Source: Nostoc sp. DedSLP01
GTDB taxonomy: Bacteria > Cyanobacteriota > Cyanobacteriia > Cyanobacteriales > Nostocaceae
DNA: 64,000 nucleotides
Assembly (NCBI GenBank): GCA_034530875.2
Contig: JAVRCJ020000003.1
Span: forward strand, 288,001-352,000
Reading direction: 5' to 3'
This document shows positions 24,348 through 61,045 of this stretch, in pieces. A model generated the notes under the pieces. It saw only the letters and a program-made list of their open reading frames with translations. It did not search any database and was not told where the DNA came from. Every line of letters starts with the position of its first letter. Position 1 is the stretch's first letter. Both the position numbers and the translations under genes were made by a program.

Positions 24348-24605
24348 TTATGAGCCAAATTTCCCTTTAATTAAACGGTGAAACAAGCGGCAAGGCCAGA
24401 AGAAAGCTCCACAAATACTCACTGAAGCTATAACAGCGACAATTCGCCAATTCAAATTAGGCGAATTGTCAGGCTGTAAGGACTGAGCTTGTGTGCTTTT
24501 AATCAGTTCTGGCGCAGAATCAGAGAGCTGGCTGGCTGTACTCACCCCTTCAATCGCTGCTCCAATTAGATAAGCTACCAGGGCAATTATTAGCCAGTAG
24601 TTCAT
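24348..24605 (-). CDS. Small hypothetical membrane protein
   Basis: 85 aa with two hydrophobic segments. Confidence 0.65.
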   Translation of the reverse strand: MNYWLIIALVAYLIGAAIEGVSTASQLSDSAPELIKSTQAQSLQPDNSPNLNWRIVAVIASVSICGAFFWPCRLFHRLIKGKFGS

Positions 24606-24668
24606 TCTGTTACACTATTTGAACTGTAAACGTATGCTTGGCAGCGAACAATCATTTGGTTTGTTGTC

Positions 24669-24908
24669 CTAATGATTGCCACCTTGTCCTAACGATAATC
24701 GACCCTCAGCCGTATCGCGAATTAGAGGCAGTTTAGATTTTATATAACTATTGAGGCTACTATCTACCTGAGCATCAATTCCCTGCTTCGCTTTTAATTG
24801 CTGAAGGAGCAATTGTACTAAAGCGGCATCGTCAAAGTTGAGTAGGGTGTTGACCTGGGTAGATTCGATTACAGCCCAGAGCTGTTGCATCATTTTGGGA
24901 GCGATCAT
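24669..24908 (-). CDS. Hypothetical protein
   Basis: 79-aa ORF with protein-like composition (LWAVIESTQ...KLPLIRD). Confidence 0.75.
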   Translation of the reverse strand: MIAPKMMQQLWAVIESTQVNTLLNFDDAALVQLLLQQLKAKQGIDAQVDSSLNSYIKSKLPLIRDTAEGRLSLGQGGNH

Positions 24909-25253: not shown

Positions 25254-25829
25254 TTATTGCGATTTCCTCACACAAGAGGGTTGCTCGCCAGAAGGAGGAT
25301 CAGGGTAAATTGCTAGAGTGTGATAGTCTGGAGCCTCGTTACCATATATCACTCGAAAAGTATAGAGTTTGTTCGTACCTTGAGCTTCGGTAACAACTGT
25401 TAAAAGTGTATTCTCAGTTTTAGGAAGGCCGGGAATCTTCAGTTTGGGGATTCGCCTGAGTTGAATTACATTTGCTGCTGAGTTTTTACAATCTCCAGTA
25501 CTAGTGTTCGGTTCGCTACCAAACTGCATACATACCGGGCCATCAAAATCTATAGTGACTTGCGATGGATCGTTTAACCAAACTTTTTTAATTACTTCTC
25601 CCGCAGGAATAAAACTTAAGTTTGTTCCTTGCTGATAGGAAATATCGATGGTGGGTATTACTCCACTTAAACCCTGTGCTTGACAAGAAAATAAGGAACG
25701 CAGAACAGCATTATTAGCTACAGCACGACCTACCAATAACAACATAGTAACCGAAAAAATTAAGGAAGCTATAGGTAGGAAATAAGAGTTATTTAGAGCA
25801 TTTCCTGGTAACTTAATACTATTTTTCAT
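25254..25829 (-). CDS. Exported protein, candidate VirB9/TraK-like core component
   Basis: Signal or TM N-terminus; beta-rich (GEVIKKVWLNDPS, TLLTVVT, YTFRV); last gene of T4SS-like cluster. VirB9 label is positional inference. Confidence 0.6.
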   Translation of the reverse strand: MKNSIKLPGNALNNSYFLPIASLIFSVTMLLLVGRAVANNAVLRSLFSCQAQGLSGVIPTIDISYQQGTNLSFIPAGEVIKKVWLNDPSQVTIDFDGPVCMQFGSEPNTSTGDCKNSAANVIQLRRIPKLKIPGLPKTENTLLTVVTEAQGTNKLYTFRVIYGNEAPDYHTLAIYPDPPSGEQPSCVRKSQ

Positions 25830-25960
25830 GGTTAAGAATGGGGATATTGGTAGATAGAACAGAGGGAGAAAAGGCTTAGAGACTCAAGGTAATAAAATAT
25901 CCCAATATCTATTGTCGGATAGGTGTCTCAACCCTCCTCTTAACTGGGCGGACTAAAAGC

Positions 25961-26152
25961 CATTGGTGTCAACTTAAGTTCAAACACTCAATTTACCGTG
26001 GTTTTAGATCCCTCAACCCCCTTAAAAAAGGGCAAAAGATTCTAGTTCCCCCTTTTTCAAGGGGGTTAGGGGGGATCGAAAATCTAGGTAGTACATCAAA
26101 AAATTTTGAAATGCTTATCAGACTTCGCTTTCATGTGAAGTTGACACTAATG
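25961..26152. mobile_element. MITE-like element (192 bp)
   Basis: TIRs cattggtgtcaactt / aagttgacactaatg (14/15); flanks actaaaagc / actaatagc resemble a 9-bp target duplication; internal GC-rich hairpin. Confidence 0.75.
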
Positions 26153-26343
26153 ACTAATAGCCCACCCCACAAGTAATAGTAATTTATTTGTTGGGGTTCC
26201 GTTATTCCAAAGATATTGAAAATATACGGTAAAAAAACTATTTACAAAAAACTAATACTTAATCAAAGCCTGCAAATTCCTGTACGTAAAAAGTCAGGAT
26301 TGAGCCTCAGCTGAAAGTTGCAAATTGAGATAAACTCTATCTT

Positions 26344-27939
26344 CTAAAATTGCATTACTTGGTTGACATATATTTCAATATTTGTGCCTGCTGGGACGAA
26401 CCAAATATTAGTTTGTTGTGACATTTGGGCGATCGCCTGTTGGTTGCGTTGGGCAATTTGCGGTACTACAGAGTTCATACCACCTTCAACAATGCCTGCT
26501 GCAATATTTTCCCCACTGTTAGTGTTACTAACAACTGTGCTGCCACCATTGATTGTGACAACTTGACCGTCAGTGCGATTCATTAACTCTGCTGCTTTCC
26601 CAATACCTCCCAATACAAATAGTCCTAGATCCATTGATGCTATGGATGAGCTTTGATTGGGGAATTTATTGGCTATTAATGGTCTACCTTTAGCACCGCG
26701 AATAATAATTGCATTATCGGGTAAGTTTTGTTCTATCAGGTTGCCATCAACTTTAGAGATAAATTTGACTACCTTCATCTGCAAAAGACCTTGTTCTGAA
26801 AGAGAACTAATTTCAGTGAGAAATTCGGTATTTGCAGGTAGAGCTACCTCACCATTGGTAGATTTTAGTGGTTCTTTCAATCGCACCACAAATGTATTTT
26901 TATTTGCTGTTCCTTCCTCATTGCCTCCTCTAGTAGTTTCGCCAAATATTGCTGTTGCGAATACGGCTTTGGCACTAGTGCCGATCGCCACAGATTTTTC
27001 TCCCTGTGGTTGCCCTTGGGCGACTACAGCATTTCCTTGTTCTGGGGTTACCTGGGAATTGGGGTTTTCATTGGGATTGGGGTTTGGCGTCTGTTGAGGC
27101 GACTGCACTTCGTTTTGAGGTTGGGAAGCTGCTGCAACATTATTAGGTTGCTCGATCGCATTTACTTGGCCGTAGCTACCTAACTTTGCCAGTTTTGTCC
27201 ACTCATCAAATGGGTTTGGTGGGGGTGGCGGAGTGATGCTGACTACGGGTTGAGTGGTTGATTGGAGAACAGGTAGTTGGGGTCTTGGTGAAGCTTGAGG
27301 AGCAGGTACTCTGACAATGCGCTCAACTGTAACTGGTCGAGGGACGTAAACTGTTGGTGCTGGTGTTGGTATCACTTGCTGTCTCCTTATTCCAGAAGAT
27401 GATGGTTCTAGCTGTGAGACTGCTGTAGGCGTCGATCTTGCCATTCTCAGCTGTTCTTGGGCGGCCTTTACTGTCTGCGTTTGTTGCGTCAGGGCTAATT
27501 TCGTTTTCAGAATTTCGATTTCGCCTTTTAGCTGCTCGGGAGTCGATTGATTTGTTGGCTGCGGCTGCACTTGTTGGGTAACAATATTTCTGGGCTTTTG
27601 ATTGCTGCTACTCATCAATTGCGACAAAAATACACCAGCTACCAAAACTACTGCCAAAGTAGCAGCACCTACTAGACTTAATTTGGCAAAGGGGTTCGAT
27701 GAGAGGGGTTGCTCTGTCTTAACTTCCTCTGGTTCCAGAGATGGTTGTGAGATTTCAGAGTCTTCTGATATTTGCCGCAGGCTTTGCCCGCCGTGGGCAT
27801 CGCTAGAAAATTCTTCTTCAAAGCCAACCAACCGTGCTATCCGCGATTCCCAATCTAGAGATTCTACTGGGCGATGGTCGGTGTCTAGATTTAATAAATT
27901 TGGTGGATGGGTTTCTGTCGAAACTGAATATTTAGTCAT
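26344..27939 (-). CDS. TrbI/VirB10-like protein
   Basis: Single TM, coiled coil, Pro/Gln-rich linker, C-terminal beta domain (LPANTEF...WFVPAGTNIEIYVN). Confidence 0.8.
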   Translation of the reverse strand: MTKYSVSTETHPPNLLNLDTDHRPVESLDWESRIARLVGFEEEFSSDAHGGQSLRQISEDSEISQPSLEPEEVKTEQPLSSNPFAKLSLVGAATLAVVLVAGVFLSQLMSSSNQKPRNIVTQQVQPQPTNQSTPEQLKGEIEILKTKLALTQQTQTVKAAQEQLRMARSTPTAVSQLEPSSSGIRRQQVIPTPAPTVYVPRPVTVERIVRVPAPQASPRPQLPVLQSTTQPVVSITPPPPPNPFDEWTKLAKLGSYGQVNAIEQPNNVAAASQPQNEVQSPQQTPNPNPNENPNSQVTPEQGNAVVAQGQPQGEKSVAIGTSAKAVFATAIFGETTRGGNEEGTANKNTFVVRLKEPLKSTNGEVALPANTEFLTEISSLSEQGLLQMKVVKFISKVDGNLIEQNLPDNAIIIRGAKGRPLIANKFPNQSSSIASMDLGLFVLGGIGKAAELMNRTDGQVVTINGGSTVVSNTNSGENIAAGIVEGGMNSVVPQIAQRNQQAIAQMSQQTNIWFVPAGTNIEIYVNQVMQF

Positions 27940-28640
27940 GGTAAAGCTTTATTTAGATTTCCAGAACAATTGTTATCTTGGATTTCACAGACATTATAAA
28001 TTTCTAGTCTGGCTTCACCAAGACGGTAAACAGCAAATTGCGAGGGAAGCGGTGCATTTGGGAGTGAAGTTGCTGGTTCATTTATTGCTCTAACTAAAAT
28101 TTGTTTATTAAATGCAATGGATTTTCCCAATTTATCATAACTACTAAAAGTTAATTGATTGGCAAGCATCTCTACTTTCCATCTGCCTTCGCCTATTTTT
28201 GTTGGTTGAGAAATTTTTTGAATTACTAATACATTTTCGGCTCCTCTATTCACATTTTCAAATTGGCGATCGGGATTTAAGTCAGTCAGTTGTGACTTGA
28301 GTTTTTCTTGAAATTCATCAGCTACTAATTGAGAGCTAATTTCCCAAACTGTTTTTGGCGGCTGTTGTGGTGACCAGTTCAGCATTAAACTCATAGTTTC
28401 ACCAACAAAGCGCCGAATAGTTTCTGGTTGTCGCTCTAAATTTGGTTGGGGGTCTACTGTAATCGCACGACCATCAATAAGTTGTACTAAACTTTGAGGC
28501 GTGAGTTGACGACCTAACTGTTGTAACATAGACCAGTGAAATATTAGTAACAGTAAGGTTAATACATTTAAACCAAACGTTGCTACTGCCAACAATGGTA
28601 AAGCGTTACTTTTTTTATTTTCTGATTTAAATATTTGCAT
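27936..28640 (-). CDS. Bitopic membrane protein, VirB8-like candidate
   Basis: N-terminal TM; paralogous to 28868-29692; 4-bp overlap with virB10-like gene. Confidence 0.65.
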   Translation of the reverse strand: MQIFKSENKKSNALPLLAVATFGLNVLTLLLLIFHWSMLQQLGRQLTPQSLVQLIDGRAITVDPQPNLERQPETIRRFVGETMSLMLNWSPQQPPKTVWEISSQLVADEFQEKLKSQLTDLNPDRQFENVNRGAENVLVIQKISQPTKIGEGRWKVEMLANQLTFSSYDKLGKSIAFNKQILVRAINEPATSLPNAPLPSQFAVYRLGEARLEIYNVCEIQDNNCSGNLNKALP

Positions 28641-28867
28641 GAAGAATTTATTTTATATTTAATTGCACTATCTTGTCAGGAGTCAGAAGCCAGGATAAGA
28701 TTTGAGAAATGAATGTACATTATAGGTTTAAGAAACTTAATGTACGTCATTGAGGTCTAATAGCTAGGCAGGGTCTCTATTCTGATTCTTACTTTCAAGT
28801 ACTAAATTCTTAATTCTTCTGTATTCATCATAACTAAAATTTTTATCAATTCTCACTTCTTAAGTTT

Positions 28868-29692
28868 TTACCTAATAAAGTTATCAGTTCTTTGCTGAGT
28901 TTTGCATTCTCTTAATTGAGTTTCATTGAGATTATTGTAGTTATCTAACAAACATAATTCTCGGATTTCATAAATCTCGAGTCTATCAGACCGGACAATA
29001 TAAATAGCTTTTTGTAGGTCAGTGCCAGTCTCGATTTGGGAATTAGCGAAATAATCTGTTGCCCGTACAAGAAAGTCTTTGTTAAAAGGAGTTACGACTT
29101 GTCTGTTATCACCTCGATTCTTTTGAATTAAGTCGGCTACCATACCCACTCGCCACTGACCCGCTGCAATTTCTTTTGGGGGATAAATTCGTTTAATTAC
29201 TAAGCGTGATGTCATCCCTTGGTTGGGATTTTCACTAAAAACTTCTGGTGGCGTGAGTTCAGCAATTGTGCTTAAGAAACCTTTGCGAAAGTCTTCTGAT
29301 AAAGCAAAACTAGCTATCCAGCTAGTGGTACTAATTTTCTGGCTACCGCCTTGGGGTGTTTTAATGGGTATTCCCAAATCTGGTTTGGGGTTTGCGGCTT
29401 CTTCAATCCTTTGTGGGGGTAGGGTTCCCGACCAGTTAAACATTGCGGTCATCGTTTTGCTGATGAATTGGCGAATTGCTTCTGGTTCTCTTTTTAAATC
29501 ATCAATTTCCCCTACTGGTTTCCCATCTATTAATTGCACAAAGTTAGGAGGTTTTCTCAGACTCAATTGGCGAATGGTTAAGCCTTGAAATAAAAATAAA
29601 AGTAACACTAATATGTGCAAACCAAAAGTAGCGATCGCAAAAAGTGTTAAAACACTTGCCGTTCTTTGTTTTTTCTCTAACAAACGTACCAT
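28868..29692 (-). CDS. Bitopic membrane protein, VirB8-like candidate
   Basis: N-terminal TM; VQLIDG, FNK..LVRA and RLEIY shared with neighbour. Confidence 0.65.
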   Translation of the reverse strand: MVRLLEKKQRTASVLTLFAIATFGLHILVLLLFLFQGLTIRQLSLRKPPNFVQLIDGKPVGEIDDLKREPEAIRQFISKTMTAMFNWSGTLPPQRIEEAANPKPDLGIPIKTPQGGSQKISTTSWIASFALSEDFRKGFLSTIAELTPPEVFSENPNQGMTSRLVIKRIYPPKEIAAGQWRVGMVADLIQKNRGDNRQVVTPFNKDFLVRATDYFANSQIETGTDLQKAIYIVRSDRLEIYEIRELCLLDNYNNLNETQLRECKTQQRTDNFIR

Positions 29693-29825
29693 TTAATCAC
29701 CTCCTGCACTCAAAAACTTCCTTTGTTATCGTAGGCAATAAATTTTGATTTTTATCTCATGATTCTTTCATAATTCTGAATTCTGGGTTCTTAATTCTGG
29801 ATTCTGAGTTCTGAATTATTTTTAC

Positions 29826-30875
29826 TTATATTCTCTCCCTCACTAAAGAAGCCGCATTATTGATAGCACTGAAGACTGCAAAACCACCAGCAGCAGCCAC
29901 AAATAAAGATAAAATCGGTGCTAAAACTCCTAGAAAAATCATGAACCACATTAAGTCTGGATCGACATTAGCATCTTGACCGGGGCCATTGACAATTACT
30001 GCCGCAGTCAAGACAGCGATAATATTAAATGAAATCTTGGCAATACCAATAGATAAAAATCCGGTTAGCCATGCAAAAATTGGTTTACCAGCTACAGGTA
30101 GTAAAGAGGCACCAAGAGCAATTGGCCCTAAAGCTGCTATCAGTAACATCGTAGCTTCTATTAAATTTTGGAACGCATATTGTAAGGAAACTAAAAAGTT
30201 TTTGATGCTTGTTTGTACTGTAGAACCTAATAACGAATTAAATGAGGCTTCCGATACAACACCTGTACCATATCTAACGTTGTCTACCTTAGTTTGAAGC
30301 CTAGCTATCCAGCTTCTATTTCCGTATGTATCTCGATATTTCTGCCAGAGAATATTTACTTTTTCGGTGGCTTTAGCAAAGCATTGAGTTTGTTGTTCGC
30401 CAGTGAGTGACTGACAAGGACGCAAGAAAGAACCTGCTACTTCTTCCGCAACACTCATATTGAGTGCTTGCTGGTAAACTTTCTCTGCATCTGCTGTCAC
30501 CAATACTTGCTGATTTGCACCGTCTATAAAATTCCGCACTCCCAGTGTCAGATTAGAAAGGATACTGCCATTGCCGGAATTATTTAAGAGTATCACTACT
30601 ACAAAAGGCCAAATTAATCCTGATATGGGACGGGTGTATTCGTAAGATAATAAGTCTCGCAGGAATTGTACCATAAAAAACAACAACGTTCCTACAGCAA
30701 AAAAGATACCTACATTTGTCAGCGCTCCATACAAGTTATCGTTAGCATTAGGTTGTAGTAAATTGAGCCATTGTTTGTCCCAACCTTCAGCAATACTTTG
30801 GGAAGTTGCGACACCATTATCGAGAATTTCATCAATTCCAGCTTGGGCAAAAAATAGTTGAATAGCCAGTTGCAT
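29826..30875 (-). CDS. Polytopic membrane protein, VirB6/TrbL-like candidate
   Basis: About five TM segments, Cys pair in loop, LGPIALGASLLP...FAWL. Confidence 0.65.
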   Translation of the reverse strand: MQLAIQLFFAQAGIDEILDNGVATSQSIAEGWDKQWLNLLQPNANDNLYGALTNVGIFFAVGTLLFFMVQFLRDLLSYEYTRPISGLIWPFVVVILLNNSGNGSILSNLTLGVRNFIDGANQQVLVTADAEKVYQQALNMSVAEEVAGSFLRPCQSLTGEQQTQCFAKATEKVNILWQKYRDTYGNRSWIARLQTKVDNVRYGTGVVSEASFNSLLGSTVQTSIKNFLVSLQYAFQNLIEATMLLIAALGPIALGASLLPVAGKPIFAWLTGFLSIGIAKISFNIIAVLTAAVIVNGPGQDANVDPDLMWFMIFLGVLAPILSLFVAAAGGFAVFSAINNAASLVRERI

Positions 30876-31039
30876 TATTTTGGTTTGATGGACTCTATTT
30901 TGAGGATTGCTATATAAAACAGCACGCTAAATTTTTAATTTGATGGTGCTTCGTGGCAGATGAAAACTAGGTATTAATACCTCGCTCGTGCATTGTTTGT
31001 AGAAATATTAATTCTGTATTCTTGTTGAATCATCAAATC

Positions 31040-31846
31040 CTATTTAACAATTGTTCTGCCAAACAAATCCATTTGAGAAGTTGCTCGTAAAAGTCGTGCT
31101 GCTTCGGTGGATGTTTCAACTCTGCGAGCGCGATTTGCTTCTTCCGTCTGTTGAGCTATATTTGCTAGATTTAAATTTGAGTATTGCAAATACTGATTAG
31201 TTTGTATTGTCTGAGCAAATGTTTCACCAACAATTCTTGATTGTTCTTGTTGAATTTTGATGCTTTGTGATTGATTGGCATTGAGCAATTGTGCTAGGAT
31301 TGCTGTAGCTGGATCGAGTTTAGTAACATCGAAAGAAGGAATCGGAATTTTACTTAATAAATCTTGGCTTTGTTTTTCGGCTGCTTCAGCAAATCCAGCA
31401 ATATCTTTCAGACTTCTTTCTGTATTTATTAACTTCGCCCTTGACCGAGCTTGTCCATTTTCACCGAGAACACCTTCAGCTGCTCCACGAGTAATTAAAC
31501 GATTGAGTTCATTACTCACTAAATTTCCCCGCACAGCGGCATTATTTTCAAAGCGATCCGATCTAGAGTAGAGAATTAAGTCATCGCGAACTTTTTTACC
31601 TGCACCAACAGGGTTGGGTAAATTCAATTCTCCTTTTGCACCACTCAGAGCATTTCGGCTTTGGTAGTCTACAGTCTTTAAGTTGTCGTTGAGATTATAT
31701 TGGAAGTAGTCTTGCAAATCTTTAGAATATAATTGAAAATCAGTCCAAACCTGACCCAATCCTGATTTGTTAGTGCTCAGTTGGGCTGCTACAGGGAGAA
31801 TTCCCAGAGATACTAAAGTCAAAGTGAAAATGGTAGTTTTTCGCAT
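31040..31846 (-). CDS. Exported helical protein, VirB5/TrbJ-like candidate
   Basis: Signal peptide from MRKTTIF (GAGGT RBS); Gln/Asn-rich helical C-terminus; lies between virB4- and virB6-like genes. Confidence 0.55.
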   Translation of the reverse strand: MRKTTIFTLTLVSLGILPVAAQLSTNKSGLGQVWTDFQLYSKDLQDYFQYNLNDNLKTVDYQSRNALSGAKGELNLPNPVGAGKKVRDDLILYSRSDRFENNAAVRGNLVSNELNRLITRGAAEGVLGENGQARSRAKLINTERSLKDIAGFAEAAEKQSQDLLSKIPIPSFDVTKLDPATAILAQLLNANQSQSIKIQQEQSRIVGETFAQTIQTNQYLQYSNLNLANIAQQTEEANRARRVETSTEAARLLRATSQMDLFGRTIVK

Positions 31847-32049
31847 ACATCTGTACCTCAAAAAGGTAGACGGAGTTATCTAGTAAGTAATTTTCCAGAA
31901 ATAATTTATTAGTGTTTGTGGGGTAAAATTGTTTGCTTTTGGTTTTGGGTGGGCGAGACGCCCACCCCACAATCATTTTTTAAAGATTTTTGGATTTGTT
32001 AGTTCCTGATTTTGAATTCCTGTTAACTACTCACAGATATCCTCCCTGA

Positions 32050-34797
32050 TTAATTACTGCGTAGCGTAGCCACTAACTGACGTGCAAATGCGGAAATCGC
32101 TTCATACTTATCGCTGTGAATTTGCATCATTTGGCTGCGTGCAGTTTGTTCGTAAGGGTTGTTAGCCACTGCTGCTAATTGTTCGTAACCTGGATAGTAA
32201 CGACAGAATGTGTAAACGCCGTTATCATCTAGCAGCCATTGACTATAAATGCCTTCTTTGCGTGGGAAAAAGCTTTCGGAGGCATTACGAGCAATAATTT
32301 TACGGGGATATTTTAAGATATCTGCAAAACTATCTACTGCAACTGGTTGAATGCGTCCAATTAATCGGGTTGTTAAGTTTTGCAGAATTTTGGATGCGGC
32401 TTTGGATTTGGCTATGGTATCAGGATCCTGTGCTGATAAGATCACTCTGATACCAGCTTTGGCGCCGTTGGCACAAATTCGACCAACTAAGTCAGAAATT
32501 TGCTCGAATTCAAATAAAATCGGGGCTTCATCGATGAAGAATATGGAAGCTGGACTGCTTAAGGCACGCCTGAGTGCGGCGGAATAAGCACTTAAGGATA
32601 GTACGGCTGCATCTTCACTATCTGAAAGGTTTCTCAGAGCAAAAACCAAAAGTTGGGCGTCGGTAGGAAAGCTGGATGGTGCAGAAATGGCTTGTCCAAC
32701 GCGGCTAGAAAGCCAAAATCGCAAGCGCAGCTGAATTTGACTGAGGGCATCTTCTACTCTGCCACTGAGGGAGCTAAGCTGTAAATGTTCTGGAGAACAG
32801 AAAAATAGAAAATCTTTTAAGGTAGGGGTTTTTTGCCAAGCTGGAGAACCAAAGCCTCCGGCCATTGCTTTGCGATATCTTTCTTGGATACCTTCATCAG
32901 CAAAGAAGACTTCTAGGGCTAGGTTGAGAATCGATCGCACTGTTTGCGATAAAATTTGACTTTCCGTTGACGAGCCTAAAACCATTGTCATTAAAGCTGA
33001 TTCTAGGAAGGCGCTATAATCTACAAAGCGATCGCGTTGTTGTTCTGGATCTAGCGCTCTTAAATCTGGCTGTTCAAATAAGTTATTCGATTGTTTGGAG
33101 ATATCAAAATAAGCTCCATTCCCCTCCATAAATTGGGTGTAGTCGGTAAATGTAGACGTCCCATCAGGTTTGGGGAAATCTAGAGCCACTACGGGAATGC
33201 CATAAGCTAAAGCCTGAGTTAAAATTCCCGACACCAATACTGATTTACCAGCACGAGTTGTCGCAAATAAAGCTAAATTTTTGTGTTGGTTAAACAAATC
33301 TAAATGTACTGGCGTTCCACCTTCTTCAGCAATTAATTCAAAGCCTTGCCTGTCGCCTCTTTTGGTTAAAACTAAAGGCATTAATCCCGGAACTTCACTT
33401 GTTAAATACAGCTGACGACGATTAAAAGGTGTGGCTAATAAACCTTCCCAAACTATCGGCAGAGTTTGCAACCAAATTTTCCAGGCATACTCGGTTTCTC
33501 GAATTACCCTTGCTGGACGTTGAAAACAGTTTTCAATATATCTTGTGGCCTCATCTAATTTCTCGACAGTTGGCCGATGTACTAAAATGGCAACACTTGT
33601 ATAAATCGGCACTGCACCTTCATACAATTGTTCTTGCGCTGCTACCGATTTTTTAATCTTTAGTTGGGCGTTGACATCAATAGTTTTACTTTTTTCTTGA
33701 GCCAAAATTGTCGTCATGTTTGACTGCTTCAGCACTCGTTGTAGAGTAGTTTTCACTAATGCTGGATTTGCCGCAGTCAATTCACAAAAAATTTCTGTAT
33801 CTACTACCGTTTCTCTAGCTAATAATTCCCATAAATACCGCAGCTGAGACGATTTATTCGGCCAACCACCGGGTTTTTCTAGAAATGACAGCGTGCCAGT
33901 ATAACGATTGTTAACATGTACCCAACGGCGATCGGCACGAGGTACGCTGGACTCCATCAGCAAAGTTGTACCGTGGATATTTTCTATCAACAATTTACTA
34001 CTAGCTAAATCGGAATTAACTTCTTCGTGGAGTCCTTGTTCATCTAAAGTGATTAATTGCGGAATGTCTATTGCTTGGGTATCATTAAATCTTCTCCAGA
34101 TGTCTTCCCAGAGTTCTCTCGCGCTCAAAGCTTTGACATCCAATCCCATTTTATTAGATAAAATTTGCTCCCAGCGCGAAAAACCCTGTTTGTAAGCATT
34201 CGTAATTACAGTTTCCAAGCGCTGGTTTTCGGCTTCTGAAAGTTCACCTTTAAATTTCAACCACCATGCTTCAACTTTGACTAACATTTTCTCTATCCAA
34301 TCATCAGCATTGGTAGAGGTTGTTTCGACTGTGTAGGTGACATAAATCCGTAAAAATTTCGGCTTACGCACGCCAGCTTTAGTTAGTTCTTTGATTCTGG
34401 CTCTTTCTGCCATCAACAAATATTTAATATCTCGGGATGGCGCATTTCTAATTAATGATGCTAACTCTTTTTGTCGTTCTGTGTCTGAACTAAAAGATCC
34501 CAAATGCAGCGTCATTCTTTCACCGCTAGGAATATCTTTTAAGCCAGCTTCAATATTATTAAAAATGGTATCGATTTGTTCTGCTCTTAAAGTGGTATGA
34601 ATTCCCTTACAATCAAAACCAAAAACAAAGCAGAACCGGTCTTTTTGACCACCTTTTGTCAATAGATAAGCTCCAATATCGCGTCCATTCATAGAGACGC
34701 GCAACATTGTCGCCAGATGTAAGGCATCTTCAAATGGCGTTAATCTAGTTTCATTTCCGGCGCCGCCGACGCTTTGTTTTCCGATTTTTTGCTTCAT
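32050..34797 (-). CDS. virB4: VirB4-like ATPase (cyanobacterial conjugation type)
   Basis: 915 aa from MKQKIGK; Walker A-like ATTRAGKS, Walker B FFIDEAP, GAKAG.RVILSAQ; overlaps a small upstream membrane gene. Confidence 0.8.
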   Translation of the reverse strand: MKQKIGKQSVGGAGNETRLTPFEDALHLATMLRVSMNGRDIGAYLLTKGGQKDRFCFVFGFDCKGIHTTLRAEQIDTIFNNIEAGLKDIPSGERMTLHLGSFSSDTERQKELASLIRNAPSRDIKYLLMAERARIKELTKAGVRKPKFLRIYVTYTVETTSTNADDWIEKMLVKVEAWWLKFKGELSEAENQRLETVITNAYKQGFSRWEQILSNKMGLDVKALSARELWEDIWRRFNDTQAIDIPQLITLDEQGLHEEVNSDLASSKLLIENIHGTTLLMESSVPRADRRWVHVNNRYTGTLSFLEKPGGWPNKSSQLRYLWELLARETVVDTEIFCELTAANPALVKTTLQRVLKQSNMTTILAQEKSKTIDVNAQLKIKKSVAAQEQLYEGAVPIYTSVAILVHRPTVEKLDEATRYIENCFQRPARVIRETEYAWKIWLQTLPIVWEGLLATPFNRRQLYLTSEVPGLMPLVLTKRGDRQGFELIAEEGGTPVHLDLFNQHKNLALFATTRAGKSVLVSGILTQALAYGIPVVALDFPKPDGTSTFTDYTQFMEGNGAYFDISKQSNNLFEQPDLRALDPEQQRDRFVDYSAFLESALMTMVLGSSTESQILSQTVRSILNLALEVFFADEGIQERYRKAMAGGFGSPAWQKTPTLKDFLFFCSPEHLQLSSLSGRVEDALSQIQLRLRFWLSSRVGQAISAPSSFPTDAQLLVFALRNLSDSEDAAVLSLSAYSAALRRALSSPASIFFIDEAPILFEFEQISDLVGRICANGAKAGIRVILSAQDPDTIAKSKAASKILQNLTTRLIGRIQPVAVDSFADILKYPRKIIARNASESFFPRKEGIYSQWLLDDNGVYTFCRYYPGYEQLAAVANNPYEQTARSQMMQIHSDKYEAISAFARQLVATLRSN

Positions 34798-35122
34798 GGT
34801 TAACTTCCAGTAAGCTTTGATAACGAGCAAAGCCTCTTGTCCAAGCGGGAACGCCAATAAATTTACTTAAAAAACTCCAACTTCTCCCACCGGTTAATAT
34901 CCACCAGGTTGCAATTCCCCAACCGGTCATTAGTACCGTCCACAGCCATTTTTGAAATTCTTCTTGGAAAAGCCCACCAAAAATTCCATTAATAATTATG
35001 TAGGATGATAAGGCTATTACTGTCCAAGGAAGAATTTGATCTGCTGGAATTGGCCCTAATGAAGGTTGGCTTCCTAAAACTTGGTTGACTGGACGAAATT
35101 CTTGTTCCCGCTCTTCAGACAT
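34751..35122 (-). CDS. Small two-TM protein, VirB3-like candidate
   Basis: 123 aa, two TM, basic tail; 47-bp overlap with virB4-like gene. Confidence 0.65.
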   Translation of the reverse strand: MSEEREQEFRPVNQVLGSQPSLGPIPADQILPWTVIALSSYIIINGIFGGLFQEEFQKWLWTVLMTGWGIATWWILTGGRSWSFLSKFIGVPAWTRGFARYQSLLEVNHEAKNRKTKRRRRRK

Positions 35123-35142
35123 TGGTCAAATCTTAAAATTAT

Positions 35143-35763
35143 TTACTTGCTCTCGCCAATTACAAAGCGTGTGAGTACATCAGCAATGGTAACAGCTACA
35201 ACAACTAATAGTGGGGTTCTGGCGATACTTTGCCAATCTTCATCTTTGCGGACTGCGTTGATTACACCAACTAAAGAAATTGCAATATAAAGTAAGAAAA
35301 GCGCCCGCAATATATTAAATATTAGGCTGACTGCCGTTTCGCTACCAGCACTATCACTTCCTTGTCCGCCAGCTTTCAAAGTTTGTTTGAAAAACTCTTC
35401 TGCTTTGCCAAAAAACTGCGCGTGTGCGGGAGCAGCGAACTGATCTATCCAAAAGAAACTCAAAACGATCGCTGCTATTAAAATTTGTATTATTATCAGC
35501 CATCGCCTCGGCAAATTCATTTGCTGGCCGATTTTATGCGTAATTACTGCAATTAAACTACCTACTAATAAACAAAATAGCAGGATAGGACTTTTGAGAC
35601 TGATAACGCTTACAAATACAGCGCAAGCAATCAAAAAAGGTACAGATTCAACCAAAATAACTAGACTGGATTTTAATGCCAGTCCTAACTTATGAGACCC
35701 CGTGGATGCACTACCAGTTAAAGCTTTGAAAAAGTTTCTCTGGTGAGAACTTTGTCTAAACAT
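35143..35763 (-). CDS. VirB2/TrbC pilin-like candidate
   Basis: Internal APAHA-Q signal-peptidase-like site followed by a two-hydrophobic-helix domain; first gene of cluster. Confidence 0.6.
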   Translation of the reverse strand: MFRQSSHQRNFFKALTGSASTGSHKLGLALKSSLVILVESVPFLIACAVFVSVISLKSPILLFCLLVGSLIAVITHKIGQQMNLPRRWLIIIQILIAAIVLSFFWIDQFAAPAHAQFFGKAEEFFKQTLKAGGQGSDSAGSETAVSLIFNILRALFLLYIAISLVGVINAVRKDEDWQSIARTPLLVVVAVTIADVLTRFVIGESK

Positions 35764-35951
35764 TTGCTAATTTTCCTATGGTTTACTATGGACACTGGTG
35801 GTTTTAAATTTTACAGACTAAGATAATCTTACATGATTGAAGATTTATTTTTCCTCAAATTATAAAGTTCAGCAAAGTTATACATCATAATACAAGTTTT
35901 TATTAATTTAAGTTAACAAAAGATTATTGTTCATTTAATTGAGTGTGTGTA

Positions 35952-37137: not shown

Positions 37138-38421
37138 ATGGCTTTTAATTGCGATCGCCAATCGAATCGTTTGGCAAGTTCAATCTCTGTACTTGCTATA
37201 ACAATTGGTCTAGTAGCAGCTCAATCTGCTAGCGAGAAATCTCTAGCTCAAACCTCCACCTCCATCAATGGAGCAGGTGCAAGCACTGTCAATACTTTGT
37301 TTGTAGGTACGGGAACTACAGCTCCTTTTAGCCCACAAGGTTCATGGCTGAACGTTTACGGTGTTGGAAATCCTCCATCTCTCAACAATCCTGCTGGTGC
37401 CGTAAATGGCCCGGTTAATTCTGGTGTCACATTCAAATATGCTCCTGTTGGTAGTGGCGCAGGCATCACAGCTTTTTTCACTCAAACCCCACCAGCAGGA
37501 TCGCCTACCATCCCCAGCCCAGTCTCTTTTGCAGCTACTGACGATCCTTTAACAGGAGCAAATGTAGAACGAGTAGCTACTGGCAGTCCCAATGGTGGAA
37601 AGGCCGTTCAAGTGCCTGTAGTAGGTGTTGGAATCGCCTTAGCTTTCAACGCTGGTATTAACGAACCAGCAAGCGGACTTAAGCTTTCGCGAATTACTTA
37701 CTGTGGTATTCTTAACGGCAACATCACAAATTGGAGCGATGCCAGAATTAAAGCAGATAACGGAGGAAAAGTAGTTTCAACTTTACCCATCAAAGTTGTA
37801 GTTCGTCAGGACTCGAGTGGTAGCACTTTTGTTTTAAGCAATCATCTCGATGCTATTTGTAAGCCTTCTGCAACTCCAGGTATTCCACCCGCTTATATAT
37901 GGAATAGAGGAGTGGGTACAACTGTTAAGTGGCCAACCACTTTCATCAAGGAAACCGGTGGAGGAGCTGTAGCTACTAGGATCGCAAGTACTGCCGGTAC
38001 AATTGGTTATGTAGATAGTGCTACGCGCTTAGCTAAAAACCTACCTGCCGCACTCTTACAGAACAAATCAGGTTCATACGTTGGTCCCACAACAGCCGGA
38101 ATTCAAAACGCTTTGAGTAGCGGAAAGATTGTTAAATATGGGGCTGCTCCTGCTGGCAGGCTGATTAGAATTGATAATTTGGCCGATCCAACTCGTGCAA
38201 GTGCCTATCCTATTTCCACAGTAACTTACGTGTTGTTCTATGATAAATACGCAAGCAGCACCATAGCAGCTGGTGTTAGGGGCTTCGTCAACTGGGCTTT
38301 AGGAGGTACGCCAACCTCAAATCCCACCGCAGACAATATAGCTACAGCTCGTGGTTACGCTCCTCTTCCCAGTGCTATCAAAGATGCATCAAGAACAGTT
38401 GTGAATACTTTCATTCCTTAG
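37138..38421 (+). CDS. pstS: PstS-family phosphate-binding protein, orphan, no lipobox
   Basis: GAGAS, GSGAG, FAATD, ITNWSD, RQDSSGST, IGYV, YPI; AAGGAG RBS. Confidence 0.85.
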   Translation: MAFNCDRQSNRLASSISVLAITIGLVAAQSASEKSLAQTSTSINGAGASTVNTLFVGTGTTAPFSPQGSWLNVYGVGNPPSLNNPAGAVNGPVNSGVTFKYAPVGSGAGITAFFTQTPPAGSPTIPSPVSFAATDDPLTGANVERVATGSPNGGKAVQVPVVGVGIALAFNAGINEPASGLKLSRITYCGILNGNITNWSDARIKADNGGKVVSTLPIKVVVRQDSSGSTFVLSNHLDAICKPSATPGIPPAYIWNRGVGTTVKWPTTFIKETGGGAVATRIASTAGTIGYVDSATRLAKNLPAALLQNKSGSYVGPTTAGIQNALSSGKIVKYGAAPAGRLIRIDNLADPTRASAYPISTVTYVLFYDKYASSTIAAGVRGFVNWALGGTPTSNPTADNIATARGYAPLPSAIKDASRTVVNTFIP

Positions 38422-43013: not shown

Positions 43014-45260
43014 GTGGTTTCTCATTCGGTTTGGATTGTTGGCACTAGCCGCAGTGGCAAGACAGCTCGTTTGGTAGAGCAATTTTGTAGTTGGGTAGAA
43101 CCTAAAAATAAGTACATTGAATTATTTTATACTAAAAACAACGGACGTGAAAAAGGTGGCAATGCCTCCAAATTTTTATATCTTAAGCCAACAGAACCAG
43201 GAGTTTTAGTCTTAGCTGCGAATGATGATAATCGTCGAGAACTAGGAGATAGAATTGTTACATTTACTTTAGGGAAATATCCGGTTCGTGCTAAGACACC
43301 GTTAGGTTTTTTTCAGGATGAGGTTATTTTATTTTGGCCTTTGCTAATTAATTCGTTGAACCTCAAAGCCCATTTCCCGGTAAGATTGCGGCCAGAAACC
43401 GAACAAGAGCTAGCAACCAAGCTGTGGCGTTCTCAATTAGACGAAGAAATTTTACGTCTTGCGGGTGTGAATGAGTCTCGTTTAGTACGTCGCATCTTAG
43501 ACTTATTCCAATTAGCAGCCTATAGTGGCGTACCTTGTGAAGATATTGCGCGGATTTTAGCTAGGGGTTTAGGGGAGAATAACACAAATTTAGACCCGGA
43601 ATTTTTAGCGTCTTTGCTGTTAGATTGGCGTAACTGGTGTTTAGAAAGGGGATTGTTAACTTATGGGATTATTACTGAACTTTATAGCCAGCATTTATTA
43701 AGCGATCGCAATTACCAAAAGCACTTAACAAAACGCTATCAAGCAGTACTTGCGGATGATGTCGATGATTATCCAGGGGTAGCGCGTCTGTTGTTTGAGT
43801 TGCTGTTAGACCAAGGCGCAGTTGGGGCGTTTAGTTATAATCCCGATGGTGCAGTGCGATTGGGATTGGGAGCAGACCCGAACTATCTAGAAGGCTTAGC
43901 AGACCGTTGTCGAGTAGAAACGTTGACTGAGCCGCCTCCAGAGTCTTTAGGACAACAACTAGCTACGCAAATGGTGGAATTAGTTACAGAGTCCGTAATG
44001 CCGTTGAGTTTACCAGAAATCGTCCACTCAATTCAAACCACTTCCCGCGCCCAACTATTGCGCCAAACAGCACAAACGATCGCCAATGCGATCCAATCAA
44101 AGCAAGTGGAACCGGAAGAAGTAGCAATTATAGCACCAGGTTTAGATGCGATCGCTCGTTATACCCTAGTAGAAATCCTCGTCAAGCAAAACATCCAGGT
44201 AGAATCGCTCAACGACCAACGCCCTCTAATTAGTTCGCCAGTCATTCGCGCATTGCTCACCATACTGGCACTAGTTTATCCCGGCTTAGGACGCCTTGTA
44301 GATCGGGATGCCGTGGCAGAAATGCTGGTTGTCTTGAGCAGAAAACAACAACCATTAGAAAGCACAGAGGCGATAAATCGTGCAGACGCGATGAATCGCG
44401 TTTCTACGACAGACATTGACCCGGTACGCGCTGGTTTAATAGCAGATTACTGCTTTGTACCCCACCCCGACCGACCCAACTTGCTATCAGTCTCAGCCTT
44501 CGAGCGTTGGGATCGAATTGGGTATGCAGCTACTACAGCTTATAACGAGATATTACAGTGGTTAGAACAGCAGCGATCGCAACAAGAACAGCGTTTAATT
44601 CCCAGCCCCATTTCCCTATTAGATAGGGCAATTGTGCGTTTTTTGTGGAATGGTAGCAATCTCCCTTACGAACAACTAGCAGCATTGCGGGAATTATTAG
44701 AAACCGCCCAACACTATTGGGAAATTGATACAAGACTACGACAAAGCAATTCAAAATTATCCCCCGATCTCCCCATCTCTCCATCTCCCAATCTCCCCAT
44801 CTCCCCATCTCCTTCAACCGCTACTATTATCGAATTCATTCAGCTATTGCGACGCGGTACTATCACCGCCAACCCTTATCCGGTGCGTCCCATTGGTGGA
44901 GCGAGAAAAGCTGTAACTTTAGCAACTATATTTCAATATCGATCTAGTAGGCGATCGCATCGTTGGCATTTTTGGCTAGATGCTGGTTCGCCTCTATGGG
45001 CCAAAGGTGGTGCGGCCACATTGTTCGGTGCGCCATTTTTCCTGCAAAACAGATTAGGCGAATCTTGGACAGCAGAAGATGAAAAATTAGCAGAACAACA
45101 ACGACTGCGTAGGATTTTGGCAGATTTGCTGTCTCGTGTATCCCAGAGAGTTTATTTGTGTCACAGCGATTTAGCCGTGAATGGACAAGAGCAACTAGGG
45201 CCGCTGTTACCCTTAGTGAATGCCTGTGTCACAGTTATTTCTGAAACTAGTGTTAATTAA
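43014..45260 (+). CDS. P-loop protein resembling a degenerate UvrD/SF1 helicase
   Basis: GTSRSGKT Walker A; VLADDVDDY at the Walker B position; VAIIAP; LLSRVSQRVYL resembles motif VI. Confidence 0.7.
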   Translation: MVSHSVWIVGTSRSGKTARLVEQFCSWVEPKNKYIELFYTKNNGREKGGNASKFLYLKPTEPGVLVLAANDDNRRELGDRIVTFTLGKYPVRAKTPLGFFQDEVILFWPLLINSLNLKAHFPVRLRPETEQELATKLWRSQLDEEILRLAGVNESRLVRRILDLFQLAAYSGVPCEDIARILARGLGENNTNLDPEFLASLLLDWRNWCLERGLLTYGIITELYSQHLLSDRNYQKHLTKRYQAVLADDVDDYPGVARLLFELLLDQGAVGAFSYNPDGAVRLGLGADPNYLEGLADRCRVETLTEPPPESLGQQLATQMVELVTESVMPLSLPEIVHSIQTTSRAQLLRQTAQTIANAIQSKQVEPEEVAIIAPGLDAIARYTLVEILVKQNIQVESLNDQRPLISSPVIRALLTILALVYPGLGRLVDRDAVAEMLVVLSRKQQPLESTEAINRADAMNRVSTTDIDPVRAGLIADYCFVPHPDRPNLLSVSAFERWDRIGYAATTAYNEILQWLEQQRSQQEQRLIPSPISLLDRAIVRFLWNGSNLPYEQLAALRELLETAQHYWEIDTRLRQSNSKLSPDLPISPSPNLPISPSPSTATIIEFIQLLRRGTITANPYPVRPIGGARKAVTLATIFQYRSSRRSHRWHFWLDAGSPLWAKGGAATLFGAPFFLQNRLGESWTAEDEKLAEQQRLRRILADLLSRVSQRVYLCHSDLAVNGQEQLGPLLPLVNACVTVISETSVN

Positions 45261-58813: not shown

Positions 58814-59077
58814 ATGAAATCTGTTTTTAGCCATGAGTATGAAGTGTTCCGTCACTGTATGATTGCGGCTCGTAAAGAGGCAAAACTAACTCAACAGACA
58901 CTTGCTAAATCCCTTCAAAAGCCGCAATCTTTCGTAGCTAAATATGAAAACGGTGAACGGCGGTTAGATGTAATTGAGTTCCTGCTAATTTCTCGTGTAA
59001 TCGGTGTAGATCCTTGCGATATTCTCAGAAAAGTTGAGCAAGAAATATCTGGAGCATCTTCTGAGGACGAACTATGA
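58814..59077 (+). CDS. XRE HTH protein, probable restriction-modification controller (C protein)
   Basis: LTQQTLA...PQSFVAKYENGERRLD; ATGA overlap with the next gene. Confidence 0.8.
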   Translation: MKSVFSHEYEVFRHCMIAARKEAKLTQQTLAKSLQKPQSFVAKYENGERRLDVIEFLLISRVIGVDPCDILRKVEQEISGASSEDEL

Positions 59078-59991
59078 ATCCACAAGATGTCATCAGACTT
59101 GCATCTCAATATTTAGATAAGTTATCAAGCCATACTTTTGATGTTTTAGATATATCTAAGCCTGTAACTGTAGACGCAGCAGTAAACTTAACTAAAGTTA
59201 TTTCAAAGCTTTCACCCTTACTCGGAAATTTAATCGAATTTAACACCGTTGAATTTTTGAATAAGCAAAATGAATTTTCTGAATTTGGAAAGTGGCAAAG
59301 GCAAGATCCTGGCTTTCCAGATACTATTTTTGTGGGAAGAGTTCAACCAACACCAGGATTAGAAATTAAAGCATGGTTTCCATTAGCAACGGAAATAACA
59401 GCACGTTTTAAAGATAGCCAAAATCACTTTCAGCACGATCAAACCTATGTTGCTATGTTGGCATGGTTACCCGAAAAAATTATCTATGGTAAGCCTCGTA
59501 TTCTTGATGTATGCCTTGTCTCTGGTTTGTCGGTAGCTTTAGCTAGAGATACTCATTATCATAATCCGCCAGATTACCTTGTTTTAGAACCAGAGGATAC
59601 AACTCAGAGAACAGCAAATTTACAGCAGACAAACACTAGTGGTTATAAATTTCAAGGATCTGTCGAAGAGTTATTAGAAGCTCAAAAAATAGTTGACTCA
59701 TGGGGTGTTGAGGGAAAAGCCTATAAACCAACTAGAGAATATCAGCGTCTGCTACGCGAACTGTTAATAAGATACAAATACAGGCTTGATACTAATTTTG
59801 CAAAGATGGATAGAATCGTACATCCAGGTATTAAAAAATTTAAGCAGCGTGTGTACAATACTCAAGTTTCTGGTATGACAGTGGGGCAGTGGAATAGGCT
59901 TCTGTCAAGCCGTAAAGAAGACAATATCAGAAAATATTTACAAGATTATCTAGATATTAGAGAAGAGAGTATTGACGAACTTCTTGATTAA
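59074..59991 (+). CDS. Putative type II restriction endonuclease
   Basis: GNLIE ... FPD ... GLEIK (PD-(D/E)xK pattern); lies between HTH and MTase genes. Confidence 0.75.
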   Translation: MNPQDVIRLASQYLDKLSSHTFDVLDISKPVTVDAAVNLTKVISKLSPLLGNLIEFNTVEFLNKQNEFSEFGKWQRQDPGFPDTIFVGRVQPTPGLEIKAWFPLATEITARFKDSQNHFQHDQTYVAMLAWLPEKIIYGKPRILDVCLVSGLSVALARDTHYHNPPDYLVLEPEDTTQRTANLQQTNTSGYKFQGSVEELLEAQKIVDSWGVEGKAYKPTREYQRLLRELLIRYKYRLDTNFAKMDRIVHPGIKKFKQRVYNTQVSGMTVGQWNRLLSSRKEDNIRKYLQDYLDIREESIDELLD

Positions 59992-61045
59992 ATCTTTGTA
60001 CTCCATAGTAGAAATAATCTGCATCTATTTCGCAGGAGTAGGCTTTTCTTCTAAGTTTCTGGGCTGCCAAAGATGCAGTGAACATACCTCCAAAAGGTTC
60101 CCATACAACATCATTTTCATCGCTTGACGCTTCGATAATAATACTCATCAAATCAAGGGGTTTTTGATTAAAGTGTACTGCTTTTCCAGAAGAAGTTTTA
60201 ACTCTTTCATCACCTCGTAAAGCTTGACGATCCCAAACATTTGTAAAACCATGAGGGCATCTGAATTTTGAACGCATCTTATTCCATTGTTGCCCTGTTA
60301 AAGATTGCTTACCATCCAAAGAAAAATAAGGTTTTCCTTGTGGCTTCCCATATTCATTTGCATAGTTAACTAGTCTCTCAAACATCTCTGGAGGAGGAAA
60401 ATACCATAAGTGTCCTTGATCGAAATACTTCCTAGTTGCAGCATCAGCCACGCCACAAGCCTCATTTGCCTGCCGTAGCCTTAACCCAGAACGTTTCCAT
60501 TCTTGTAGCAACCATGTTTTTAAGGTGAGTTCATTAACTTTAACTTCTCTTACATATTGAACACAGACTTCTGTAACTACAGGGAATCTACGAATTTTTT
60601 TTGTATTAATATTTCCTGCTATATGGCCTTTTCCTTTGTTCCAAATATTGCAATTTACATAACGCCAACCGTACTTTTCTAAAACTGGATGCACAACAGC
60701 CCAGCCAATTTCTGAATTCCAAAACCATAGTGTTGTAGATGGTATGGCTGCTTTTGACCATGCTTCAATATGAGGTTCATACCAATTAGGTAAATCAATA
60801 TGATCTGAAGTGTCTCCTTCAAAACCAAGAACACCGTAAGCTCCATCTGAAACGATAACTATAGGCTGCTCCCAATTGTTGTAATGTTCAAGGCTATCGC
60901 CTAAATATAGAGCAACACTTTCATCGTTCCACGCAGAAAAATTGAAGTTGGTGTTGAGGTTGAGTACTTTTCCACGACCAACTGTGCTGGTAGCCTTGCG
61001 TTTTAAAGTCTTAGAGGAACTCGGTTCTGCGTTAGATAGACTCAT
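59957..61045 (-). CDS. Site-specific amino-DNA methyltransferase (N6A/N4C, beta-type motif order)
   Basis: LYLGDS, SDGAY (motif IV), H..QKP, VWEPFGG (motif I), CEID. Confidence 0.85.
   Translation of the reverse strand: MSLSNAEPSSSKTLKRKATSTVGRGKVLNLNTNFNFSAWNDESVALYLGDSLEHYNNWEQPIVIVSDGAYGVLGFEGDTSDHIDLPNWYEPHIEAWSKAAIPSTTLWFWNSEIGWAVVHPVLEKYGWRYVNCNIWNKGKGHIAGNINTKKIRRFPVVTEVCVQYVREVKVNELTLKTWLLQEWKRSGLRLRQANEACGVADAATRKYFDQGHLWYFPPPEMFERLVNYANEYGKPQGKPYFSLDGKQSLTGQQWNKMRSKFRCPHGFTNVWDRQALRGDERVKTSSGKAVHFNQKPLDLMSIIIEASSDENDVVWEPFGGMFTASLAAQKLRRKAYSCEIDADYFYYGVQRFNQEVRQYSLL

Follow-up and report, generated by a model that had tools for sequence, protein, structure and literature searches.

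A chromosomal mating-pair-formation operon without transfer genes in heterocyst-forming cyanobacteria, probably under phosphate control

Why would a cyanobacterium keep on its chromosome the genes of a conjugation apparatus with no recognisable coupling protein or relaxase? The question is raised by nine genes, g1 to g9, of Nostoc sp. DedSLP01 (assembly GCA_034530875.2), which lie in a 64,000-nucleotide stretch of contig JAVRCJ020000003.1 (positions 288,001 to 352,000), referred to here as the window. An initial annotation, made from the sequence alone, described an apparently domesticated type IV secretion system (T4SS), vertically kept and serving something other than self-transfer. We find that the block is a mating-pair-formation (MPF) operon of class MPF_C which is kept by its hosts and is almost certainly not self-transferring. 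What is new here is a link between this domesticated block and phosphate: the operon is probably under host SphS/SphR regulation, as judged from motif conservation and one published transcriptome, SphR binding itself being predicted. In the VirB4 tree MPF_C is one of the two branches that split off deepest, and according to the available parts of published accounts nothing is known of it experimentally; a single sentence in PMC3158045 states that cyanobacteria have relaxase-less T4SS.

Composition and missing transfer functions

The block consists of nine minus-strand open reading frames (ORFs) running from 35763 to 25254 of the window, at the positions and in the order originally described, with intergenic gaps of −47 to 514 bp and a GC content of 39.9% (genome, 40.9%).

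g1, 35143..35763, minus strand: alr7204/all0471 type; probable VirB2-type pilin
g2, 34751..35122, minus strand: alr7205 type, in the VirB3 position
g3, 32050..34797, minus strand: VirB4 ATPase, 915 aa
g4, 31040..31846, minus strand: alr7207 type; possible VirB5-type tip protein
g5, 29826..30875, minus strand: alr7208 type, polytopic membrane protein in the VirB6 position
g6, 28868..29692, minus strand: VirB8-like paralogue A, alr7209 type
g7, 27936..28640, minus strand: VirB8-like paralogue B
g8, 26344..27939, minus strand: VirB10/TrbI
g9, 25254..25829, minus strand: VirB9 N-terminal-domain fold
Predicted Pho-box array, 35899..35939, minus strand: four half-sites with an 11-bp period, 176 bp upstream of g1

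The model for class MPF_C is the mating-pair operon carried by pCC7120alpha, a plasmid of Nostoc sp. PCC 7120. Of its gene tags, alr7199, alr7206 and alr7213 are given in the available part of PMC8600333, and the other alr numbers were assigned by gene order. Every gene of the block has a same-order counterpart in that operon, a single plasmid gene answering to both g6 and g7, so that the resemblance to cyanobacterial plasmid systems noticed earlier is one-to-one with VirB8 doubled. Identities are 38, 38, 54, 22 and 32% for g1 to g5 and 29, 27, 25 and 43% for g6 to g9, that is, 22–54% for homologues of eight plasmid genes.

Family models match g3 and g8 only, leaving the remaining seven genes without a notable hit; the two matches bear out the earlier reading of the large ATPase as VirB4-like and of the proline-rich protein as VirB10-like. 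g3 matches the VirB4/TraC models with E values of 7e-14 and 3e-12, under curated cut-offs, and when read from the ATG at 34797 has intact Walker A (ATTRAGKS) and Walker B (FFIDEAP) motifs, unchanged relative to the sister plasmid clade and the same as in pCC7120alpha. g8 combines one membrane helix, a proline-rich linker and a C-terminal TrbI domain (TrbI/VirB10, E 1.7e-7, under the curated cut-off). An orphan full-length VirB10 paralogue, 46% identical to g8, lies on another contig (C18; L001:9495-11087), flanked by an ankyrin gene on one side and a dehydrogenase gene on the other; it has no Pho array and is accompanied by no further T4SS gene.

The AlphaFold model of g9 (pLDDT 79) returned nine Foldseek matches at E ≤ 0.001, all of them chains of T4SS outer-membrane complexes, including a VirB9 N-terminal domain (2.9 Å). 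The C-terminal helical domain of the plasmid versions is gone from g9 in the alignment, and two extra cysteines are present; neither a VirB9 C-terminal domain nor VirB7 was recognised in the block. The two bitopic proteins, g6 and g7, are indeed paralogues (32% identity), and this duplication marks the chromosomal clade. Among annotated families, the closest Atlas neighbours of g6 are of VirB8 type: VirB8 (0.88), DUF2895 (0.86) and DotI/IcmL (0.84), scores that serve as leads. For MPF_C, the available part of PMC4027160 reports homologies to VirB3, VirB6, VirB8, VirB9 and VirB10, and none for the pilin. In our profile comparisons g2 gave no VirB3 signal and g5, with four hydrophobic segments, no VirB6 signal, in a test in which the VirB10 control also failed; one of 28 members of the g5 family matches TrbL (E 0.04).

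The layout of g1 suggests a VirB2-type pilin: a long three-helix membrane leader is followed by an AxA-Q processing site at residue 116 and a mature part of about 91 residues with two helices. Against a TrwL profile (hhalign) g1 scored 21.7, with 30 shuffled decoys at 15.1 or below, at a probability of just 8–35% over 25 columns that span the processing site only; Pfam TrbC matched none of 31 plus 60 proteins. g4 is exported and all-helical, with a clade-specific variable insertion at its hairpin turn. It matches TrwJ weakly (E 0.003, probability 10%, again in a test that failed on the VirB10 control), and fold searches returned generic helical bundles only. Profiles of g1, g4, g5 and g9 gave nothing significant against the sequences of solved structures. 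Because the profile matches are weak, g1 as pilin and g4 as VirB5-type tip protein are graded as likely only. The block has the marks of MPF_C, namely a VirB4 of that clade with intact ATPase motifs and a compact, class-specific gene set; the VirB9/VirB10 core components and a VirB8-like bitopic protein are present.

Among the 48 ORFs of the window there is no match to relaxase, coupling-protein or integrase families, in agreement with the initial annotation, and the search of the whole genome (113 contigs, 99.8% complete) that it had proposed was likewise negative. No coupling protein was found genome-wide (PF02534, PF10412, PF12696; tblastn with two cyanobacterial coupling proteins), and no relaxase of PF01076, PF08751, PF03432 or PF03389, MOBH, MOBC and unknown families lying outside the search. 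There is no second VirB4 and, also genome-wide, no alr7212-type gene, which in the plasmids lies downstream of VirB9 and encodes an exported protein, sometimes with a peptidase M23 domain. The block has no integrase or att boundaries of a conjugative element. VirB11 had been listed among the genes not recognised in the window; since none occurs within the 32.7-kb stretch around the pCC7120alpha operon, its lack is a trait of the MPF_C class (no genome-wide VirB11 search was made here). Relative to pCC7120alpha, the block is chromosomal and fixed, with VirB8 doubled, VirB9 shortened and supplied with extra cysteines, a variable insertion in the VirB5-like gene and a Pho array, and is without the alr7212-type gene, coupling protein and relaxase.

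Elsewhere in the genome, contig C26 encodes a HerA-type ATPase unlinked to the block, and contig C7 holds a 41-residue MobV-like scrap with no ORF (L208:646-1492), adjoining a 234-aa ORF that resembles a plasmid partition or stability ATPase; this is likely a plasmid relic. On pCC7120alpha itself, the gene after the coupling protein (L073:25890-26381) matches the MobA/VirD2 relaxase domain (E 4e-9), besides the annotated MobV.

Distribution, descent and selection

A VirB4 match was found in 56/401 genomes of the phylum, with at least 74% identity in 25. All 24 fetched loci of the latter group have two VirB8-like genes and neither a coupling protein nor an alr7212-type gene, whereas 18 plasmid-type loci have at most one VirB8-like match, with a coupling protein in the fetched stretch of 12. 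Among 80 further loci none has the plasmid-type extras and 64 have all nine genes; g9 is missing in seven with full flanks (Scytonema, Tolypothrix campylonemoides, Calothrix NIES-3974), and the other nine incomplete loci are short and cut off. In the VirB4 tree the 38 double-VirB8 rows form one clade (SH-aLRT 100) nested among coupling-protein-bearing plasmid systems. Identity had guided the initial choice of these rows, which makes the test partly circular, but their label by gene content does not depend on it.

The marker gene g7 occurs, as a single copy, in 248/301 genomes of the family, in 52/65 genera and in 74/75 other genomes of the same genus. A class-wide sample gave matches in seven of 351 genomes, one of them outside the family, with close relatives named Snowella, and Gloeothece verrucosa carries the block in rearranged form on a linear replicon of 879 kb. 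Two out-of-family copies (L054/G218, L074) are rearranged and without g9: in one, g4–g8 are inverted relative to g1–g3, and in the other g4–g8 precede g1–g3. A second, divergent MPF_C type was also seen (L066, L067, L071, L072), with a VirB4 of about 1070 aa (35% identity) and no coupling protein in the fetched stretch; it is frequent in family f3.

Of the well-supported rpoB splits (support at least 95), 7/9 recur in the concatenated block tree and two conflict, while block and rpoB distances correlate at 0.75, a value reached in none of 2000 permutations. Three block-less genomes nest among carriers, in two places. These results point to one origin and mostly vertical descent, with several losses and a few transfers, so that the vertical keeping proposed earlier stands in the main, qualified by the conflicting splits, the losses and the Snowella and Gloeothece copies. 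Median dN/dS is 0.06–0.34, and dS is 0.21–0.41 compared with 0.29 for rpoB (36 within-genus pairs, which are not independent). A coupling protein was not found anywhere in 15/25 carriers, two of which are single-contig genomes, and occurs elsewhere in the genome in the other 10/25. The patchy distribution with relaxed selection that would have pointed to a plasmid-like element was not seen: most genomes of the family carry the block, under purifying selection, and these figures bear out the idea of a T4SS kept for something other than self-transfer.

Within the reach of these searches, an ordinary or decaying integrative conjugative element is next to ruled out in our judgement. Its plasmid ancestry, some tree conflicts and the transfers outside the family would suit one; the missing integrase, relaxase and coupling protein, the fixed single copy, purifying selection and a GC content near that of the genome do not.

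Other signs that had been taken to suggest domestication fared less well. HIP1 sites lie exactly where reported (26429, 29631 and 33028), but these three are the only ones in the 10.5 kb of the block, where 9.3 are expected at genome density (Poisson P 0.017). The block is thus HIP1-poor, and we rejected HIP1 as a mark of domestication; among plasmid-type loci the density ranges from 0.5 to 7.6 per 10 kb. Of the repeat-filled spacers described, a short heptamer-repeat spacer at 29767-29814 was confirmed, and not all spacers are filled with repeats. The housekeeping gene map is indeed close by, as a local neighbour only: it lies beyond the block in 9/80 related loci.

Probable phosphate control and possible function

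Aligned upstream regions show TTAA half-sites with an 11-bp period about 175 bp before g1. We scored such arrays by their match to YTTAAYYW, which we take to be the Pho-box consensus. Across the 4145 upstream regions of the genome PstS ranks first and a tetratricopeptide-repeat protein second. Eight of the top 17 were identified, the other six being a NucA-like nuclease, a GDPD/phytase, two PhoD and two PhoX. Scores within the top 5% occur at 21/37 loci of the chromosomal clade versus 0/16 plasmid-type loci. In a set of 97 loci, mostly Nostoc and partly redundant, a score of at least 17.5 was reached by 65 at period 11, and by 1, 13, 4 and 4 at periods 9, 10, 12 and 13, respectively; in 71/97 the highest-scoring site falls between −165 and −205, and the same array test on four internal genes gave 0 or 1 of 98. 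The gene upstream of g1 varies (dehydrogenase, murF, secreted proteins) and is often co-oriented with the block, and the array therefore belongs to g1; at one locus, with a divergent PhoX upstream, the assignment is ambiguous. The published Pho-box consensus is CTTAACCT (PMC1906773). Members of the SphR regulon are expected to have at least three 8-bp boxes upstream with an 11-bp period; before g1, relatives show these strongly and the genome studied here weakly. The supplement of the same paper ranks all0471-all0468, the PCC 7120 orthologues of the promoter end, 15th among predicted SphR targets, as hypothetical proteins. The genome studied here has a response regulator-kinase-phoU locus.

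Published RNA-seq data from Nodularia (PMC9846622 supplement) agree with this prediction. NSP_RS02510 to RS02470, which correspond to g1 to g9 (tags assigned via the TrbI annotation, gene count and the murF neighbour, not by sequence), rise without phosphate: log2 −P/+P values for g1 to g9 are +2.35, 2.00, 1.70, 1.88, 1.92, 0.95, 1.52, 0.95 and 0.82 at day 7 and +2.27, 1.96, 2.04, 1.90, 1.48, 1.30, 1.54, 1.35 and 1.45 at day 14, when all nine are significant. Induction is strongest at the promoter end, and murF, upstream of the operon, stays flat. The operon is not mentioned in the available text of that paper.

Other expression data come from the two model strains, in which the block is annotated as hypothetical proteins (all0471-all0463 in PCC 7120, Npun_F4255-F4263 in N. 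punctiforme). In PCC 7120 the six genes looked up have 0.1–4 reads per kilobase per million, and all0469 rises 5.9-fold 12 h after nitrogen step-down (PMC3141674 supplement). All nine N. punctiforme genes, placed by synteny, are transcribed (PMC6495340 supplement), and the VirB4 orthologue Npun_F4257, with 915 aa of the same length as g3, was detected in the cell proteome, whose tables did not contain the five other N. punctiforme tags searched (PMC11424642 supplement). A hormogonium-specific role was rejected, the N. punctiforme genes going up 1.5- to 3.6-fold at 1 h and mostly back down in wild type. They stay up in sigJ and sigC mutants, and the operon is outside the hormogonium sigma-factor programme. 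Conserved NtcA or LexA boxes were sought and found scattered only (4/29 and 1/29 upstream regions, the LexA-type box at −489). A FurC box is predicted upstream of all0465, which is not among the validated targets in the available part of PMC10406281.

The Pho box narrows the possible function: from the apparent induction by phosphate shortage, the machine probably helps to gather phosphorus. In the history we envisage, a conjugative MPF_C operon became established on the chromosome of a forebear of the heterocyst-forming family. There it shed the genes for the coupling protein and relaxase as well as the alr7212-type gene, gained a second VirB8 by duplication, was left with a shorter VirB9 and passed under SphS/SphR control. 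VirB4 would drive cleaved g1 subunits out of the inner membrane, with g2, g5, g6 and g7 as the platform, and a short g1 pilus tipped by g4 would cross the outer membrane through g8, a scheme we consider reasonably likely. Since there is no coupling protein, cytoplasmic cargo would not be loaded, and the machine would work at the outer membrane. Our best guess, a tentative one, is that it may bring polymers rich in phosphorus into the periplasm, extracellular DNA being the most plausible of them; nucleases and phosphatases of the Pho regulon would then free phosphate there for Pst uptake. The movement would resemble that of ComB, for feeding instead of transformation. The full proposal is that heterocyst-forming cyanobacteria, under SphR control, obtain phosphorus from DNA, either extracellular or derived from neighbours, which the machine would haul in through the outer membrane; it is possible and a little more doubtful.

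Known T4SS without a coupling protein include Ptl, which exports periplasmic cargo, ComB, which imports DNA, and Trw, for which adhesive pili are proposed (PMC12857230, available in part, as for all statements from it). Helicobacter pylori ComB, to which the initial annotation had pointed, brings DNA into the periplasm via VirB2-4 and VirB6-10 without VirD4 or VirB11; like the block it is host-kept, with VirB4 as sole ATPase (PMC12857230). It is, however, VirB-type, has VirB7 and a full VirB9, lacks VirB5 and feeds ComEC (PMC12857230), whereas the block keeps g4 and comEC, although encoded in the genome, is not co-induced. Of the ComB-like role, DNA capture into the periplasm remains our proposal; transformation is weakened because the competence genes do not respond.

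Several points weigh against phosphate-controlled DNA capture. The array of the window itself is weak, scoring 16.75 of 23: this is the 5.9th percentile of the 4145 upstream regions and the 13th among AT-matched ones, and 58/2000 shuffles reach it. Several deep lineages have no such array (loci of Scytonema, Tolypothrix and Snowella type), several small-genome lineages are without the block, and g9 is absent from some carriers, including one single-contig genome in which it was not found. Induction in Nodularia is modest, 2- to 5-fold, compared with a log2 of 7.2 for phnD. Transcripts of the operon are present in ordinary medium too, and their level responds to other shifts. comEC, comEA, dprA and comF are unchanged without phosphate, which argues against a co-regulated transformation path; a pilus secretin rises at day 14 only. 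That g4 is kept and variable, while ComB has no VirB5, fits an adhesive pilus better, and DNA as cargo is a prediction by analogy.

An adhesive pilus, by which phosphorus-starved filaments would attach to mineral particles, cells or plant hosts, is a close rival that we consider somewhat less probable. As in Bartonella Trw, a plasmid-derived system without a coupling protein that is proposed to make such pili (PMC12857230), the VirB2-like and VirB5-like genes have both been retained and vary. Presumed exposed loops of g1 (residues 121-150, pN/pS 0.62) and g4 (residues 151-180, pN/pS 0.90) are among the most variable stretches of the block, and the loss of g9 in some carriers would suit a machine needing no cargo channel. 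Trw, however, has multiple pilin and tip copies and binds host cells (PMC12857230), whereas g1 and g4 are single and phosphate control is predicted; pN/pS exceeds 1 nowhere except in the g9 signal peptide, and the operon lies outside the hormogonium sigma-factor programme. Another close rival, held with slightly less conviction, is a two-step exporter like Bordetella Ptl, by which folded periplasmic proteins of the Pho regulon (PhoX, PhoD, NucA, PstS-like) would cross the outer membrane. Pseudomonas Hxc, a phosphate-induced type II system that exports a phosphatase, offers a parallel; candidate cargo genes bear the same array, and the site upstream of g1 in Nostoc repeatedly holds secreted proteins, often PstS-like. 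These neighbours are variable and limited to one genus, the block has no fixed cargo gene beside it, and its VirB9 lacks the C-terminal domain. Ptl exports periplasmic cargo without VirD4, works at the outer membrane, has a known linked cargo and is without VirB5 (PMC12857230). Ptl also has VirB11, so that in VirB5 and VirB11 it is the reverse of the g1–g9 set.

A helper in DNA transfer, borrowing the coupling protein and relaxase of a plasmid, or a Ced-like importer of DNA from kin for recombination, seems improbable. The ten carriers with a coupling protein elsewhere, ComEC, and the precedent of archaeal Ced, a host-kept conjugation homologue that imports DNA (available parts of PMC9905601 and PMC11868833), speak for it. 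Yet carriers that have no coupling protein at all show strong selection, the competence genes are not co-induced, and Ced responds to DNA damage and belongs to cells that have no outer membrane (same sources), while the block has no conserved SOS-type box, the LexA-type one being confined to a single upstream region. Contact-dependent attack, lysing neighbours for their phosphorus, is very improbable: phosphate control would fit, and bacteriocin genes are also induced without phosphate in Nodularia, but no toxin-immunity pairs flank the block and killing T4SS are not known to work without VirD4.

Nitrogen fixers are typically phosphorus-limited. If DNA capture or another phosphorus-gathering role is right, most of the family would possess a phosphate-controlled envelope machine whose part in phosphorus acquisition has gone unrecognised, and the block would join Ptl, ComB and Trw as a fourth type of T4SS without a coupling protein. 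Both model strains, PCC 7120 and N. punctiforme, carry and express it as a fixed part of the chromosome. We found no description of the locus and no nutrient-regulated role of type IV secretion in the literature searched, mostly without subscription papers and further supplements. Six all04xx tags had no main-text match there and, of six further ones, all0465 appears once, in the table of predicted FurC sites; the main text of PMC7564538 does not mention the locus, and the available part of the 2025 T4SS review (PMC12857230) contains neither cyanobacteria nor MPFC. PMC13756078, on "T4SS" and HIP1, was set aside, as it concerns type IV pili.

Surroundings of the block

Two further features lie within and beside the block.

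MITE-like insertion, 25946..26167, strand not applicable: in the g8–g9 spacer; incidental
PstS-like gene, 37138..38421, plus strand: divergent, stand-alone; a candidate partner, found beside the block in some loci only

The insertion, recognised in the initial annotation as a miniature inverted-repeat transposable element (MITE), has 39-nt imperfect terminal repeats and four other genomic copies of at least 150 bp (89–94% identity). The PstS-like gene is present in 36/123 mapped loci, all Nostoc-type; it has no pstCAB alongside, encodes 346–515 aa and is sometimes doubled in Nostoc, where its site also holds other variable secreted proteins. An array score of at least 17.5 was found for 11/33 of these PstS-like genes.

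The flanks of the block differ between genera. In Nostoc, DUF3134-mltA-cemA adjoins it on one side and a pair of small genes (79 and 85 aa; window 24348-24908) on the other; this pair follows g9 in 61 Nostoc-type loci only. Their expression in N. punctiforme is unlike that of the operon, and the 79-aa gene has a paralogue on contig C9 of the same genome. A 748-aa ORF with no Pfam match (window 43014-45260) is conserved beside cemA in Nostoc, and at 59074-61045 a DNA methylase gene converges on a 305-aa ORF of no known family, possibly a restriction-modification pair.

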